DNA of 64,000 nt from a phage, in sequence record PZ445488.1. One strand, 5' to 3'. Under the pieces are notes generated by a model that saw only the letters and a list, made by a program, of their open reading frames with translations, ran no database searches and was not told the origin of the DNA. Position 1 is the stretch's first letter. Every line of letters begins with the position of its first letter. A program made the position numbers and the translations under genes. Shown piece after piece: positions 1,383-40,855 of the stretch.

Positions 1383-1410
1383 TTTATTTCTCCAAATTAG
1401 TATTTTTTTT

Positions 1411-1449
1411 TGATAGGTCTATAATATCATGTTTGAAGCAAAAGTAAAC
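1411..1449 (-). promoter_or_regulatory. early promoter with embedded stem-loop (PeSL-like), upstream of motA
   Basis: Plus strand tgataggtctataatatcatgtttgaagcaaaagtaaac; on minus strand reads GTTTAC(-35)-spacer-TATTAT(-10); near-identical copy at 1733-1770. Confidence 0.55.
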
Positions 1450-5654: not shown

Positions 5655-5681
5655 AAAGAAAAAAAGGGGACCGAAGTCCCC
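5655..5681 (-). terminator. intrinsic terminator downstream of rIIB
   Basis: Minus-strand RNA GGGGAC-UUCG-GUCCCC followed by UUUUUUUCUUU. Confidence 0.65.
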
Positions 5682-10294: not shown

Positions 10295-12129
10295 TAGGAC
10301 ATCCATTCTTTACGAAGTTCTGAATCATCACCCAACAACATTTCAAAGAGTTCTTTCCAATTTTCAGGAAGTTTAACTACGTCGTACACAGGGTTCTGAA
10401 TCATTTCACGATACTCTGACTTTTCAAGGGAGCCCAATCCCTTGATGTATCGAATACTATGCTTAGGCAGCGTATCTTTAACTTCTTCATACTCAGCTAC
10501 AGTATAAAACCATTTTTGAGTTTTGCCAATTTGTGCAATAATTACAGGTGTTTTAACAAAGCGAATACGTCCTTGTTCAAACAATTCAGGCCAATTACTA
10601 AAGAAAGCAAGCAAAGCAGGATAAATACTTCCAAGGCCGTCATGATCGGCATCGGTCATAATTGCAATATTACGATAGTTCGTATTCTCTGCCTTTTCAC
10701 CAAGAATAAGACCTGTGATAGCACAGATATCAAAGAGCTCTTTGTTCTTCATCATATCAGCATATGACATACCCCAGCTATTCATCACCTTACCACGTAA
10801 TGGGAATCCGCCGTGTAGTTCACGGTCACGAACATCAATGAGATAACCAATTGCCGAATCACCTTCTGTTAAGAACAATGTCGTATCTGCATCTTTACCA
10901 CATTGGTTAGCTTTAATATGCTTATGAACCTTAGCTTTAGTTGCCTTTTTAGCTGCTTTAGTTTCTGCGGCCTTTTCTGCTGCCAATTTACGAGCTAATG
11001 CTGCTTCAATTATAGGCATTAAAACTGCTTCAGAATTCAAAATATTTTTTGCCAATTTTTTGGTATCTAATTTAATATGCGTCCGAATTTCGCCATAAGG
11101 ACTTGTTAAACGCTCTTTGGTTTGGGAATCAAAACGAAGGTTCTTCATTCCACGAACGAACATTAAGAGAGTGAGACATTCCTTGATGCGCGCTTTAGTC
11201 ACGTCGATTTTATATTTGCGTTTAATAGCCGGAATTAATTCTTCGCAAATGTCGTCCATCACACATTCAATGTGATGACCGCCATTTTTGGTATGGATGT
11301 TATTAACATAAGTTAAATGACGGAAGCCATCTGGTGACCGACCAATGGCAATAGAGCATCCATCTTGTTCTTGAATGACGGTCTCTTCATCAAATTGTTT
11401 AGCAAACTTCTTAAAGTTACCTTTAATCCTTTTGCCATTAAATTTAAATTCAATACCAGGATAAACGACTGCCAATGTTTGGAGCCGGTCTATAGTAATA
11501 TCTTGGTATATTTTTTCAAATTGATTCATTTCAAAATGAGAGAAATCAGGAATAAACTCGACCTTAGTCCCGTTGTTTTTAGACGGCTTAGATTTCCAAG
11601 AAATATTATCAGCATTATTAGAACAATTAACTGTCAATTCGTTTTTACCATCTGAAGTAGTGCCAACAAAAGAGACAGAAAAAATATTTGTTAATGAAGA
11701 ACCGACACCGTTTTGTCCACCCGTAACACGTTCTTTGTCGTCACCAAAGTTGCCACCAGCTTTTGTACGTGTCCACGCCGCAACTGGTCCTGGAATTTCT
11801 TCTCCTTCAGGAGTAATAACTGTTTCTTGAGGAATACCTCGTCCATTATCTTCAACAGTCACTTTATTAGAATTTAAATCAATACTAACAGAAATTTTAT
11901 TAGCATATTTGAAATTGGTTCGAATAGCTTCATCTACCGAGTTGTCAATAATTTCATCAATTAATTTGAGAACACCTGCAACATATTTAACCTTTTTAAA
12001 TTCACCGAATAGGAAACGTTCTTGTTCTTCATTGGCAACACTTCCAATATACATGCCAGGACGCTTCAAACAATGCTCTTTATCAGATAGCATTTCAATT
12101 TTATTATCAATCATTAGATTTTCTCTCAA
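10294..12129 (-). CDS. 39: DNA topoisomerase II large subunit, GyrB-like ATPase + Toprim (single fused 39/60-type gene)
   Basis: 611 aa continuous ORF with GyrB-like ATPase N-terminus; in T4 this function is split into genes 39 and 60. Confidence 0.85.
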   Translation of the reverse strand: MRENLMIDNKIEMLSDKEHCLKRPGMYIGSVANEEQERFLFGEFKKVKYVAGVLKLIDEIIDNSVDEAIRTNFKYANKISVSIDLNSNKVTVEDNGRGIPQETVITPEGEEIPGPVAAWTRTKAGGNFGDDKERVTGGQNGVGSSLTNIFSVSFVGTTSDGKNELTVNCSNNADNISWKSKPSKNNGTKVEFIPDFSHFEMNQFEKIYQDITIDRLQTLAVVYPGIEFKFNGKRIKGNFKKFAKQFDEETVIQEQDGCSIAIGRSPDGFRHLTYVNNIHTKNGGHHIECVMDDICEELIPAIKRKYKIDVTKARIKECLTLLMFVRGMKNLRFDSQTKERLTSPYGEIRTHIKLDTKKLAKNILNSEAVLMPIIEAALARKLAAEKAAETKAAKKATKAKVHKHIKANQCGKDADTTLFLTEGDSAIGYLIDVRDRELHGGFPLRGKVMNSWGMSYADMMKNKELFDICAITGLILGEKAENTNYRNIAIMTDADHDGLGSIYPALLAFFSNWPELFEQGRIRFVKTPVIIAQIGKTQKWFYTVAEYEEVKDTLPKHSIRYIKGLGSLEKSEYREMIQNPVYDVVKLPENWKELFEMLLGDDSELRKEWMS

Positions 12130-16951: not shown

Positions 16952-18265
16952 TCAAATAAAATGGACGTCAAAACGACCGCGAGTTGTGCCGACATACAAT
17001 AACTGTTTAGCTAATTCTGAATCAGCATAATGGATACACGGTGTATAAACAAAGGCCGTGTCAACAGACATACCCTGGGCCTTATGGAAGGTTGATACTG
17101 GTAGTGCCTTCACCTTAGTGAACATACGTTTAGCATCCCAGAATTCACTCCATGGAGCTTTACCACCTTTATTCCAGAATTTGTATGTTTCTGCTGTCTT
17201 AGCCAAAAACAAATTGAATTTATAAAGCTCTTCTTCAGAAGAAATAACCTTTATATCCTCGCGGACGTATTCTTCATCATCCACATATGTTTCTACTGTA
17301 AGATTCCAATATCGTATCATATACTCGCCTGAAACACCACGTGCTTTAACGAATGTAGACGTTTCTACAGCATCTCGAATACGAACGAATTGCCCGTTAT
17401 TGAAAAGCATTTCGGTCATATTTTTGCCATCTAGCTTATACGTCTTGGTAAACGGCTCTTGTAGAACAATGACCTCGTCTTTAATAAATGGTTTTTCTGT
17501 TTCGAGAAGTTTTCGGCGAATAATTGAATTCAACTTATCTACTGACTTATTTGTGAATGCCATCATTCGATTTTCGAAAAGGTCTTCAGGAGTTTTAACG
17601 ACGTTAAAATAGTTCATCATATACGATTTAAGGTCTGTATATCCATGAACACCGTGCCCATCAACTACTTTATCGTAAATCCATTTGCCATTACGAATAT
17701 CAGTCGCAACATCAATAATTGGTGCATTGCTACGTTTAACTTCTGTAAGGTTGCATTGCACGAAGTCTTTGTGAGTGAAGAAAGGACTTAGATACGCAGT
17801 TGATTCGCCTGGGTCTACCGGTCGAATTTGACATCGGTCGCCGATTCCAATTACTGTGCACCATTTAGGGATACTAGCTAACATTATTTTAAACAGAGAA
17901 CGGTCACACATTGACGCTTCATCAAATAACAGTACACGACACAAGGCTAAGTCGGGAACCTTTTTCTGTTCAAATAATACGTTTTCTTCGTATGTAGTTG
18001 GGTTGATTTTAAGAATGCTATGAATAGTCGATGCTTCTTGACCTGCAAGTTTGCTTAGAACCTTTTTAGCAGCGTGTGTAGGGGCTGCTAAAATAATACC
18101 TGATTCTCCAGAAGAAATAAGGGCTTCAACGATGAATCTAGTAAGGGTTGTTTTACCTGTACCAGCAGGCCCATTAATAGTTACGTGATGTTTCTTTTCT
18201 TTAATAGCTTTCATAACAACGTTGAAGGCGTTTTTCTGGCCTTCGGTCAAATCGTCAAATGTCAT
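16952..18265 (-). CDS. dda: Dda SF1 DNA helicase
   Basis: 437 aa (T4 Dda 439 aa); Walker A GPAGTGKTT; synteny. Confidence 0.8.
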   Translation of the reverse strand: MTFDDLTEGQKNAFNVVMKAIKEKKHHVTINGPAGTGKTTLTRFIVEALISSGESGIILAAPTHAAKKVLSKLAGQEASTIHSILKINPTTYEENVLFEQKKVPDLALCRVLLFDEASMCDRSLFKIMLASIPKWCTVIGIGDRCQIRPVDPGESTAYLSPFFTHKDFVQCNLTEVKRSNAPIIDVATDIRNGKWIYDKVVDGHGVHGYTDLKSYMMNYFNVVKTPEDLFENRMMAFTNKSVDKLNSIIRRKLLETEKPFIKDEVIVLQEPFTKTYKLDGKNMTEMLFNNGQFVRIRDAVETSTFVKARGVSGEYMIRYWNLTVETYVDDEEYVREDIKVISSEEELYKFNLFLAKTAETYKFWNKGGKAPWSEFWDAKRMFTKVKALPVSTFHKAQGMSVDTAFVYTPCIHYADSELAKQLLYVGTTRGRFDVHFI

Positions 18266-18573
18266 CGTAAAGTCCCTGCAATTGGAATACTAACAATACG
18301 ACCCGTGTCCAGGATTCGTTGATATAATCTTTGCGTCTCCGCATCTAGTTTAACGTGTTTCATTTCAAGCTTATTAAACCAGAACTTACGCGGAGTTTCG
18401 ACCATTCTTAGAACTCCCATTTTTAAATCTGTTTTATACTGTGTTTTCAAAGTATCGAAAACTTTATCTGCAATATCCTTTCTAAAAAATACTGCAGGAC
18501 GATGTTCATCAAGTGGAACCGGGACAGTAAATCCTTCCATATCTCGATAAACTATTGCATATACATAAACCAT
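18262..18573 (-). CDS. hypothetical protein (103 aa), dda.1-like position
   Basis: Track ORF overlapping the dda start by 4 nt. Confidence 0.45.
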   Translation of the reverse strand: MVYVYAIVYRDMEGFTVPVPLDEHRPAVFFRKDIADKVFDTLKTQYKTDLKMGVLRMVETPRKFWFNKLEMKHVKLDAETQRLYQRILDTGRIVSIPIAGTLR

Positions 18574-18575
18574 AA

Positions 18576-19324
18576 TTAACCTTTAATCAGTTGGAATAAT
18601 GATGCGCTAAGTGGTAAGCCACGTTTCAATTTTAATTTACCAATGAAACCAATCTTTTCAAAACGTTGCAGACCTTGGATAACTTTATCATATGTATCGA
18701 AAAGCGATTCAGCGTCAGTTAATTTAGTTTTAGTTTTCCAGTCAGAGCCTTTAAGAAGAACATTGAGTTTAGTAAGTTCATGTCCTTCCGCTTGATGTGA
18801 ACCATTAATGCGTGCTTTCAAAGCAACAATTCTAAGTTTAGATTCGTTAGATAAAGGTTGATTTTTCATCATGTTCGCCATATGCTTAACACGATTTTCA
18901 CGTTTTGCTCGGATTTTTAAAATAGTACCATAAACCTTTTTAATTTGGGCCCATTTCTTCTCGTCGAGATTAAGTTTCTCTACTTTACGGACAGAAGGAT
19001 TAGCGATACGTCTTGCAATGGCATCACGTTTCTCAATAAGTTCTTCTAATGTTAAATCAGAACGAGCCGTGTTATATTTTTTCTTAACTGGGATAACATT
19101 ACCTTTAATGTATCCTATATCGTTATTAAAACGTTCTAAGGATAATTTCTCACCTTCAACAGAGTTATTGAAAGATTCACCTGAGTAAGCGCAGACCTTT
19201 TGATCAAGAATGTTTTTAAGGTAATTAAAGTCTAAGTTAAAATCCTTAGAGCGTCTCTTCGCAGAAGCTCTGGTGTGGTAAAGACGACGATTGATTTTTT
19301 TTTAATTTTATTATTTGATAACAT
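18576..19324 (-). pseudogene. srd: srd-like gene interrupted by a 1-nt frame change in an A9 run (or sequencing error / slippage site)
   Basis: ATG at 19324 with AGGA RBS gives only 30 codons; shifting frame in the A9 tract (plus T9 at 19295-19303) joins a stop-free frame running into track ORF 18576-18881, about 250 aa in total (T4 Srd 247 aa). Confidence 0.45.
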
Positions 19325-19477
19325 AATATTTTCCTCTGTCTTACGGACGTTAAGGTCATTTAGCTGATAAGCTTATAATATCATGCCCTCAGGTAGTGTA
19401 CACTCTTTTTTCATAAAATGCTTTAATTTTTTATGTGTTATAATGGTTTTGAGTTCCATCCGGTTATTCCAATCCAG

Positions 19478-20086
19478 TCAGTAACCGACAATAGACAGAT
19501 TCCAGATTGTATAACGTCCATCTTGAATAATAGAATCTACACGCAGTGTAGTCCCTATAGGGAGCATAAATTCACATTCGTCAGATATAAGTCTAGCATT
19601 AGACCGTCTTGTCGCTTCAGGGAAAGCTCCATTGAACTCACAAGATGGCGCAGCCAGAATCATGTTAAGCATATGTTCACGGAAGTTGAAAGCAAATGGT
19701 GCATCTTTGATGCAGAACATATTAAATGTTCCATAAAAATTATATGAAGCGAAGTTACGTGCTACACCGAACACTGGACTAAAGCTCATTACTCTGTCAA
19801 ATTTAATAATACTACCAATGCCTTTATCAACAAGTGTGGCCATAGTTTTCTTAGAGATTCCACGATACATTGTCTCAGGAACTGAAGACGTCCAATTTCT
19901 ACGAACAATTGCACTTAAATCTTGTTGAATGCTATCAGGCTTGTTTTCCATACACTGCCATAGTACACTTTGTTCAATGTCGCTGAATTGCTCATCGATT
20001 TTGTACTGAAGCATATCTTGATAATCCGGGCATTGAGCACGACGAACCATTTCTTCAATTTCACACTCGTTATACGGCATAAACAT
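19478..20086 (-). CDS. ADP-ribosyltransferase, ModA/ModB-like
   Basis: 202 aa; ordered YRG ... SFS ... E-x-E motifs consistent with the R-S-E ADP-ribosyltransferase triad; at the modA/modB position. Confidence 0.5.
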   Translation of the reverse strand: MFMPYNECEIEEMVRRAQCPDYQDMLQYKIDEQFSDIEQSVLWQCMENKPDSIQQDLSAIVRRNWTSSVPETMYRGISKKTMATLVDKGIGSIIKFDRVMSFSPVFGVARNFASYNFYGTFNMFCIKDAPFAFNFREHMLNMILAAPSCEFNGAFPEATRRSNARLISDECEFMLPIGTTLRVDSIIQDGRYTIWNLSIVGY

Positions 20087-20143: not shown

Positions 20144-20725
20144 CTAAAAATTCAACATTTTCAAATGAATGATTTTGTATAACCGAGATAAAGGGTCATA
20201 TTCTAAGTCTTCAATTTCTACAATCTCAAATCTAGAGATACCTGAGACCATATATTCTTGTTCAGATTCAATCATATCTAGGACGTCAACACGTTTTTCT
20301 TCCATAACATGCTTAGGGTTCTTTCCGGCGAGTACAATGTTAATCATGTTTTGGTAGTAATCAAAAATGAATGGAGCATTCCTGAGACTAAGAATAGTGT
20401 ACGTCTGATATTCCCAACTCCCAGAGAACTGTCTGGCCGTACCAAAGTCTGTTGTAAACGATGTTACTCGTCCAGGAGACCAATGGCATCCAACAGAAAG
20501 AAGGGAAAGACGTTCTACTTCTTCTGGAGTTACACCACGATAGAGTTCTACTGGTACTGTAGAAGTCATATGCTTACGAACAAGATGGTCTAATTCATAG
20601 TGGAAATCTGGGTCTTCCTTATAATCAGTGCAAGCCCAGAGAATGTTTTGTTCTTGTTTAGTGAATTTATCATCAATTAGTGCTGCGAGATATTCGCGTT
20701 CTTGAAGTTCAGATTGACATGTCAT
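20144..20725 (-). CDS. ADP-ribosyltransferase, ModA/ModB-like paralog
   Basis: 193 aa; LYRG ... SFTT ... ESEQEYMV motifs; tandem to the previous gene. Confidence 0.45.
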   Translation of the reverse strand: MTCQSELQEREYLAALIDDKFTKQEQNILWACTDYKEDPDFHYELDHLVRKHMTSTVPVELYRGVTPEEVERLSLLSVGCHWSPGRVTSFTTDFGTARQFSGSWEYQTYTILSLRNAPFIFDYYQNMINIVLAGKNPKHVMEEKRVDVLDMIESEQEYMVSGISRFEIVEIEDLEYDPLSRLYKIIHLKMLNF

Positions 20726-32981: not shown

Positions 32982-34138
32982 TCCGGGTACCTCAAAGCGT
33001 CATCAGAGCTAGTTATATCAATAATAGATATGGAGTTTTCTGCTAACCCGTTTTTAGATAATTGACGTTTATAATATCTTTCACAATATGTACACGTCGT
33101 CCCGCAGATTTCATTAGCACAATCGAAATCTGGATGTCTGAACCACCTTTTTTCTAAAAAGCCATCTAACAAAGAGGTTTCAATATTTACTGTATGTGAA
33201 AACTCAGTTTCGTTTTCAAGAGTGAAAATAGTCTCTAAAGGCTTCCACAGTTCTAACAAATTACCTTCAAACTTTTCAGAAGCGTATGCTTCAAGAACTT
33301 TCAAAATGTAGTCTGTGCTACCTGTACGTCCTGAAACTTTGAATTGAGTGATACCAATATCATTATAAAGTTTCAAATCTTGAGGACGAACAAAACGAGT
33401 TCTCAGCCAGTTAAATGGGTCTGTATCACGAGCTTTAATACAGTGTTGCATTGGATATCCATTTAAGGATTTAGCATCATCAGCGGTAACATCAGTACTA
33501 TGGAAAATATAGCAAGAGTCACGATAGCTACAATGTGTTGTATACCCTTTACCAGCATTAGAACAGAACTCATTTACAAGAACTTCAAATATTATATTGT
33601 TCTTATTGCAAAACTCTGCTGCACGCTTCAGGAAAGAAACTGAACGGTTCTTATGAATTCCGCAGCAGACCTTTTTGATATTATATTGGTCATGCAAGTA
33701 TTTGATTTGAGTTACAGCATCGACATGTAGAATTGTTGAAACTTCAATCTCAATATCTTTATTGACTTCACGAACAATTTCCATAACAACAGGGTTAGCG
33801 ATAGTAATACGCCATACGCCTATTGACCAAAGATACTGAACATAATCCTGAATAGCTTTCTTCTTCCACTCAACTAGTTCTCTTTTTGAACCAGGATTTA
33901 TCGTGTTGAGTGTATAGTTAAAGCAAATACCTAATTCGTTACAACGTTTAACGTAATCTTCTAACATCTTTTTGTCAACGTCAGGAAGCCTAAAATCAGG
34001 TCTGGCTGCTACAAAAGCCATTTCTCTTGTAGAGCCGTATACTTCGTTTATCAAGCTATTAGGATAAGTTTTATTGAGCTCTACGATTTTATCAAGAAGA
34101 GCTAAATCAAAATTCGTTCCGATTTTAAAAGTATTCAT
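32978..34138 (-). CDS. hypothetical Cys-rich protein (386 aa), possible Fe-S / U32-like enzyme
   Basis: Cys clusters EFCSNAGKGYTTHCSYRDSCYIFHS and C-terminal CANEICGTTCTYC (Cx4Cx3Cx2C); not the radical-SAM CxxxCxxC layout; fold unassigned. Confidence 0.4.
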   Translation of the reverse strand: MNTFKIGTNFDLALLDKIVELNKTYPNSLINEVYGSTREMAFVAARPDFRLPDVDKKMLEDYVKRCNELGICFNYTLNTINPGSKRELVEWKKKAIQDYVQYLWSIGVWRITIANPVVMEIVREVNKDIEIEVSTILHVDAVTQIKYLHDQYNIKKVCCGIHKNRSVSFLKRAAEFCNKNNIIFEVLVNEFCSNAGKGYTTHCSYRDSCYIFHSTDVTADDAKSLNGYPMQHCIKARDTDPFNWLRTRFVRPQDLKLYNDIGITQFKVSGRTGSTDYILKVLEAYASEKFEGNLLELWKPLETIFTLENETEFSHTVNIETSLLDGFLEKRWFRHPDFDCANEICGTTCTYCERYYKRQLSKNGLAENSISIIDITSSDDALRYPE

Positions 34139-34195
34139 TTTTTTTGCATCTCACGTTAATTGATGCGATGGTTTTTGCAGGTCTTACTTAAATTA

Positions 34196-40298: not shown

Positions 40299-40855
40299 TC
40301 CAATGCTAATTTTTTAAATTGTTTTTGTTCTTTTACGTTTTTAGTAACTTCTTTGAGAAATTCATCAGTGACCATGGCCTTCAGTTCTTTAAGGACTATT
40401 GGCAACTTGTTATTTTTTTCAAGGAGCCGCTTATACTCGGTAGCATCATTCATGTTGATTGTGTAATGTTTCATCAACAGTTTGATAACTAGTAACTCTG
40501 AAGTGTCTTCGACTAGTTTAGCCCATTTAGAGAATCGACGACCACGCGGAATTGCCGCCATCATATAGTTGAAGTGCGCTTCATCACTTAATTCAGAACC
40601 GACTAAGTTCATCATGTAAACGGCTGGCATACATTCTGGAAACTGTGATAATGAGTTCTCAACCATAAATTTTGAGTAGTCGACCTGAGCAATTGACATA
40701 GATTTCTTTTCATTAATAGCATTAATGATTTTAAAGAATTCATTCTCAGGTTTTTCTTTAAACATATCAGCACATTTTTGAATCGCATCAGCGTCATTAG
40801 ACTTCCATGCAATTTGGTGCTCGTTAAGCTGGACGTCATCATCGAATAAGTTCAT
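40292..40855 (-). CDS. 62: clamp loader small subunit
   Basis: 187 aa (T4 gp62 187 aa); between regA and 44. Confidence 0.75.

Follow-up and report, generated by a model that had tools for sequence, protein, structure and literature searches.

A strain-private nine-adenine tract splits the srd gene of a Mosigvirus phage matching Escherichia phage CEV1, with a real and recent frameshift as the favoured explanation

In dnaX-type −1 frameshifting, the slippery sequence A_AAA_AAG is accompanied by an upstream Shine-Dalgarno-like element and a downstream hairpin. The frameshift hot spots at A runs in phage T4 reflect Streisinger-type replication slippage, and the classic runs there are five or six A's long. 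As to longer runs, in many bacteria transcriptional slippage turns efficient once a run reaches nine A or T, and slippage at this length is selected against (PMC1088944); the RNA polymerase of E. coli requires at least eight A's, and insertion rescues only a few percent (PMC6260861). In E. coli, C-AAA-AAA near a start codon caused 25-60% −1 frameshifting although no stimulator was present (PMC1851650), and the Citrobacter tssM gene is rescued via transcriptional slippage on an A11 tract (PMC4256274). The gene that concerns us here, srd, is a T4-type gene: according to the passages of two papers that cite Qi et al. 2015 (PMC7430671, PMC4980113), T4 Srd binds RNase E on the catalytic half of the enzyme and speeds host mRNA decay.

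We describe an srd gene that is split at an A9 tract in a 64,000-nucleotide stretch of phage DNA (sequence record PZ445488.1; this whole stretch is referred to as the window). The gene lies on the minus strand. A Shine-Dalgarno sequence, GAGG, can be read directly at 19333-19336 and ends 8 nt before an ATG (19324-19322); from this ATG the 0-frame encodes MLSNNKIKKKSIVVFTTPELLRRDALRILT and then meets a TAG stop (19234-19232), such that the start frame (19232-19324) has just 30 codons and runs right through the tract. The tract itself occupies 19295-19303 (T9 on the plus strand) and is read in the start frame as AAA AAA AAA, which presents the slippery heptamer A_AAA_AAA. A second frame, at −1 relative to the first, opens straight behind a TAA (19304-19302), contains no stop between 19301 and 18579, and closes with a TAA at 18578-18576; its 241 sense codons (KKINRRLYH...LIKG; 18576-19301 with the stop) are homologous to Srd of phage HX01. 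We refer to this second frame as the srd body; a −1 shift or a single added A leads into it from the start frame. An initial annotation had proposed an RBS-preceded ATG at 19324 reading only 30 codons, to be joined to a roughly 240-codon stop-free frame ending at 18576, and both of these features check in every coordinate. Its description of the tract as A9 plus T9 at 19295-19303 holds for the tract but not for the implied pair, which is one tract viewed on both strands. We also looked for an alternative in-frame start that would serve the srd body on its own: there is no ATG, GTG or TTG before Met148, and the first codons directly follow the TAA.

Upstream of the gene, a consensus scan located an early-type sigma-70 promoter-like site (19375-19402, minus strand) with TGTACA, a 16-nt spacer and a TG-extended TATTAT. 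The site is some 50 nt ahead of the srd ATG and looks like the early promoter of motA elsewhere in the window; this consensus match suggests that srd may be read by host RNA polymerase.

The identity of the gene is clear from several directions. The first seven srd codons (MLSNNKI) are the same as in the intact Srd of relatives, and the downstream frame encodes a protein with 99.2% identity to residues 9-248 of HX01 Srd. When the two frames are rejoined, the protein matches PHROG 1400, ‘Srd anti-sigma factor’, with an E value of 1.8e-97 over residues 5-249 of 249; bearing in mind both of these similarities, the long open frame is no chance ORF, and the srd-like identity that had been proposed for it is upheld. 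The rejoined protein is also 98% identical to cluster representatives, it aligns end to end with 26 family members (the T4-type sequence included), and it retains residues that the family alignment marks as invariant, among them C45-A-Y-S, E64-R65 and G75-N-V. The genomic setting is equally typical: the window has the order modB (20144-20725), modA (19478-20086), srd, dda.1 (18262-18573) and dda (16952-18265), and the same order is found in six annotated relatives. In the Mosigvirus phages HX01, JS09, LH01 and SA79RD, the slot between modA and dda.1/dda is filled by a single 747-nt CDS named ‘Srd anti-sigma factor’. T4 Srd and its Mosigvirus orthologues thus have this slot and the full-length PHROG 1400 match in common with the window gene. 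Where the window gene departs from the family is in the single uninterrupted frame: the other members that we read are single-frame proteins of 247-262 aa, whereas the window srd is broken at a private A9, has a start frame of 30 codons, and carries in addition an Asp15→Tyr change. On sequence similarity, then, the gene is srd of a Mosigvirus phage matching Escherichia phage CEV1, and its product would be a T4-type early protein that stimulates RNase E.

Sequence searches of Pfam and PDB with Srd returned nothing significant. As a separate observation, Srd residues ~5-158 also match PHROGs annotated as endonuclease, HNH endonuclease and endonuclease VII (E values from 1.8e-18 to 5.7e-11). The invariant residues of Srd (C-A-Y-S-G-E, E-R, G-Y..G-N-V..V-K..Y-N) look like a degenerate HNH-type core, a resemblance that comes without support from the Pfam and PDB sequence searches.

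Comparison of the tract with relatives changes the description of the lesion. Six aligned relatives read ATT AAC AAA ATC (Ile-Asn-Lys-Ile) where the window reads ATT AAA AAA AAA TC, i.e., AACAAAA has become AAAAAAAAA through a C→A substitution together with two extra A's. The one-nucleotide frame change of the initial annotation is therefore correct in the sense that one A or a −1 shift restores the frame, but it does not describe how the window differs from its relatives. All of the ~154 phage genomes that cover the site are two bases shorter and no more than 96.2% identical over a 106-nt query; in the 22 relatives that were read directly, AAC or AAT followed by AAA is present without exception. 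None of 26 diverse Srd-family proteins (cluster representatives) has an extra residue at the tract position. A gapped-pattern scan of IMG/VR, metagenome contigs and GTDB genomes found no A-run allele: its three true srd matches all read AACAAAA (the sequence found in one IMG/VR contig and two metagenome contigs), and the remainder were chance matches. In the cluster members that are 249 aa long, the additional residue stems from a T4-type MK- start and not from the tract. At the protein level, exact look-up of the 30-aa product returned no record, and exact look-ups among ~15 billion proteins found neither the A10 form, nor the A7 form, nor a form that differs by Tyr15 only, while the ancestral-type Srd (Asn8 and Asp15, otherwise identical) is present on 23 contigs. 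By all of these comparisons, the A9 tract is a derived, strain-private state.

This private distribution makes it very unlikely that the tract is a selected, programmed recoding site, at which −1 frameshifting or transcriptional slippage would deliver the 30-aa product and full-length Srd in a set, regulated ratio. What recommends that idea is that A_AAA_AAA conforms to the X_XXY_YYZ pattern and stands in the correct register (codons 9-10, AAA AAA) for a −1 shift from the upstream frame into the Srd frame. The srd heptamer thus resembles that of dnaX in its pattern, its register and its use of tRNA-Lys; it differs in ending in A where dnaX has G, and in having no hairpin, no internal Shine-Dalgarno-like element and no conservation. 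The 111-nt segment that begins at the tract folds with −13.6 kcal/mol (z = −0.86), and 42 of 200 shuffled sequences fold as well, so there is no significant downstream stimulatory structure; nor is there an internal Shine-Dalgarno-like stimulator 6-17 nt upstream of the tract, the only such element being srd's own RBS about 30 nt upstream. Precedents exist in dnaX, in IS elements (PMC1088944) and in tssM (PMC4256274). Against programmed recoding stand the counts for the two-frame arrangement (0 of 22 relatives read, 0 of ~154 genomes by alignment length, and 0 of 26 family members) and a 30-aa product that has no record in the collection. We regard this reading as highly improbable, and the comparative sequence data already come close to refuting it.

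The tract may nevertheless permit some unprogrammed rescue of the full-length protein. By a ribosomal route, Lys tRNAs reading codons 8-10 (AAA AAA AAA) would slip by −1 on A_AAA_AAA, and the next codons read would be ATC AAT CGT. By a transcriptional route, host RNA polymerase would add one A on the nine-A run; the tract, which lies downstream of the promoter-like site, has the length of about nine A or T at which such slippage is expected. Both routes would give the same 249-aa Srd variant (MLSNNKIKKK-INRRLY...). The likeness to described slippage-rescue systems is considerable: the tssM A11 tract (PMC4256274), the ORFs with 9A/9T (PMC1088944) and pDEST17 (PMC1851650) have, like srd, a frameshift in an A run of at least eight within a gene that is transcribed and translated by E. 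coli, and in these systems, too, the full-length protein is regained through one more A or a −1 slip of the ribosome. The C-AAA-AAA of pDEST17 is, like the srd tract, near the start codon. For tssM and the IS elements, the arrangement is both functional and conserved; the srd A9, by contrast, occurs in one phage strain, and its rescue is something that we deduce. By analogy with these systems, rescue of Srd is probably partial and unregulated, and the allele leaky.

The srd body shows no decay over its 241 codons. Compared with 19 intact relatives, the window srd has four private substitutions: two missense changes near the tract and two that are synonymous, which are too few for a test of relaxed selection. 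The first missense change, Asn8→Lys, results from the C→A; the family varies at position 8, where Lys is among the residues. The second is a G→T at 19280 (minus strand), 15 nt downstream of the tract and absent from all 19 intact relatives, which replaces Asp15 by Tyr in the Srd frame; at position 15, close genera have Asp or Glu and distant ones a hydrophobic residue. Three readings follow from the lack of decay: the frameshift is very recent, it is bypassed in function, or it is not real. We also note that three private changes (C→A, the two added A's and G→T) fall within 24 nt, with only two other private changes in srd.

The provenance of the window bears on whether the frameshift is real, and the CEV1 draft is the one other assembly available for comparison. 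Two contigs of the CEV1 draft assembly (GCA_003060545.1), KM389390.1 (contig00005; window positions 34099-19307) and KM389397.1 (contig00012; 19293-15752), match the window over 18.3 kb with 100% identity and without gaps, and five further draft contigs that we tested are 99.9-100% identical to it (the contigs compared, KM389389-KM389397, span window positions 1-51671). A match of 99.9-100% points to CEV1, or to an indistinguishable stock, as the source of the window. The private G→T at 19280 is present both in the window and in contig00012, at 14 nt from the contig end. The draft leaves a 13-nt hole between these two contigs; it covers 19294-19306, precisely the tract and its flanks, so the draft gives no length for the tract, and at least one data set failed to read through it. 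There are three other holes: 34100-34149, which contains a T8 run (34138-34145); 1338-1487, which contains the other T9 run of the window (1403-1411) and a promoter repeat; and 11713-11730, which is without a run. Three of the four holes thereby coincide with the three longest A/T runs in the window.

It is this behaviour of the draft that keeps alive a serious rival explanation, in which the tract length is miscalled, the phage has an intact srd, and the frameshift is a feature of the record alone; the true tract would then be A10 (Ile-Lys-Lys-Lys-Ile, with one extra Lys) or A7 (Ile-Lys-Lys-Ile). The draft, which has Newbler-style ‘contig000NN’ names and is flagged UNVERIFIED, breaks exactly at the tract, and two of its three other holes contain the other longest runs; it also undercalls homopolymers by one base at three sites relative to the window (34158, 40310 and 43797), and an A10 undercalled in the same manner would become A9. 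This, the type of error seen in the draft, is the likeliest form of a miscall. A true A7 would need a two-base overcall, which is unusual. The pristine body fits a functional in-frame gene, whether with a true A10 or a true A7, just as well as it fits a real and recent frameshift. Furthermore, the private changes cluster near a draft contig end, which may reflect either a local mutational cluster or locally poor sequence, and a platform that miscalls long runs would also lengthen both nine-base runs of the window: these two are longer than in HX01 and in nearly all relatives, while the other three of its five A/T runs of at least seven (A7 at 5659, T8 at 34138 and T7 at 40413) have the same length as in HX01.

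Other evidence weighs on the side of a real A9. The window differs from the draft at the three undercalled homopolymers and at about six mismatches, mostly within ~50 nt of contig ends; at all of these sites the window agrees with HX01, and none of them is among the indels that separate the window from HX01. Compared with the CEV1 draft, the window is a finished and corrected sequence, which implies better data or careful finishing, and it still has the A9 and the G→T, which tilts the balance towards a real A9. When the window was aligned to ~69 kb of HX01, srd was the sole frame-broken ORF at high identity, one of 137 matched ORFs in 64 kb (137 being the HX01 ORFs on the gene strand with a match in the window). 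The other unpaired one-base indels relative to HX01 sit in intergenic or divergent stretches, so the homopolymer-linked frameshifts elsewhere in the assembly that would mark an artefact were not found; the rest of srd and the rest of the window are intact. A length miscall alone is also an insufficient source of the difference from relatives, since that difference includes the C→A substitution, and no in-frame allele with the private residues (the A10, A7 and Y15 forms) occurs among the ~15 billion proteins. We judge a miscall to be possible but less likely; it remains a serious competitor because the draft of the same phage broke exactly at the tract, and the real, strain-specific frameshift is favoured over it.

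As to how a real A9 could have arisen, we propose two steps. First, the C→A change would have fused the two runs of the ancestral A2-C-A4 (codons AAC AAA, Asn-Lys) to one unbroken A7; second, the A7 would have gained two A's by replication slippage to become A9, which would have moved the 241-codon body into the −1 frame. A comparable history can be read in a second tract of the same window, in the 5'UTR of motA between the early promoter and the RBS (1403-1411; T9 on the plus strand, A9 on the gene strand). Most relatives have AAAACAAA at this site, phage 55 has A8, the window A9 and G53 A11; the variants of this tract indicate that fusion by C→A and length drift occur naturally in the phage group. 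Lengths of 8, 9 and 11 are the signature expected of the slippage known from the T4 hot spots, with which srd shares a change of run length in a T-even gene; unlike the classic hot spots, the srd run was first made by a substitution that fused two shorter runs.

The sequence around the motA tract has a peculiarity of its own: an ~85-nt repeat of ~88% identity (1374-1458 and 1694-1779) places an early promoter and leader upstream of both motA and a 71-aa ORF (1487-1702), and it probably contributed to the draft hole at 1338-1487. Exact look-up of the window's MotA protein returned no record.

Long runs are scarce in this lineage. The window has 53 A/T runs of six but only five of at least seven, against ~51 expected from a first-order model, and 145 kb of HX01 and other CEV1 sequence contain none of nine or more; this scarcity suggests strong avoidance of A/T runs of seven or more. 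Such avoidance fits runs that are unstable or costly, and it bears on a special case of the real frameshift: a hypermutable on/off switch, in which A9 is real, the stock is a mixture of A8, A9 and A10 arising by replication slippage, and Srd could be switched on or off with high frequency according to the state that the host at hand favours. The varied lengths of the motA tract in different isolates agree with this idea, as do the independent losses of srd in other isolates (see below), and a stock of mixed tract lengths would likewise account for the break of the draft assembly at the tract. On the other hand, the tract is found in one phage only, without sign of selective maintenance, and hypermutability follows from any long run and is not in itself a sign of adaptation. 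We therefore consider an adaptive switch unlikely, and it is similarly doubtful that A9 acts as a reversible dimmer, with A9 genomes of an A8/A9/A10 stock supplying a reduced dose of full-length Srd through slippage. If this were true, the dose of an RNase E activator would be tuned or switched between hosts, and a lytic T-even phage would show contingency-locus-like behaviour.

Disruptions of srd are not confined to the window. In phage AV115 (OR352945.1) the gene is independently frameshifted by an A6→A5 change in the codons for Lys81-83; a 2-nt AG deletion is present in the Logan assembly of SRR6379779, and a 1-nt deletion in that of DRR869236. Either srd is lost recurrently in Mosigviruses, or these three other frameshifts are errors. 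Two short ENA contigs that might have added a further disruption are uninformative: over the first 61 nt, at the end of a short contig, the sequence is unrelated. In one relative a neighbouring gene differs: a Logan contig of SRR31707853 has, after dda.1, a 156-aa product with helicase-family and motB-family matches in place of the 437-aa Dda, which suggests a deletion that fused dda to the motB region.

Taken together, of the three causes that had been left open for the split gene (a sequencing error, a true frameshift mutation, or slippage-dependent expression), conserved or programmed slippage is effectively excluded by a private tract that lacks downstream structure, while the real frameshift is favoured by a corrected window that keeps the A9, with a miscall still a serious rival. 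Our preferred reading, which we hold with a modest degree of confidence, is that srd has suffered a real, recent and strain-specific frameshift from tract fusion and replication slippage, and that the allele is probably leaky; we infer the nine-base length of the tract in the DNA, the order of the mutational steps and the rescue by slippage. Formally, the allele is a pseudogene of a dispensable, non-essential accessory early gene. The A9 is an accident in a slippery tract, either an ordinary strain-specific lesion or a base-calling slip, and no selected recoding device. Indels in A/T homopolymers that slippage may rescue are a well-known kind of event, and the case involves neither a new gene family nor a new mechanism.

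For annotation, our analysis means that srd should be marked as frameshifted at a homopolymer, instead of being entered as a 30-aa and a 101-aa ‘hypothetical protein’. The tract also offers a natural substrate for measuring A9 rescue near a start codon in phage-infected E. coli. Host-factor screens and O157:H7 biocontrol work make use of CEV1 (PMC7553319). Should the tract be real, this phage would be a natural srd-deficient or srd-hypomorphic Mosigvirus, and its shut-off of host mRNA may differ from that of T4 or RB69.
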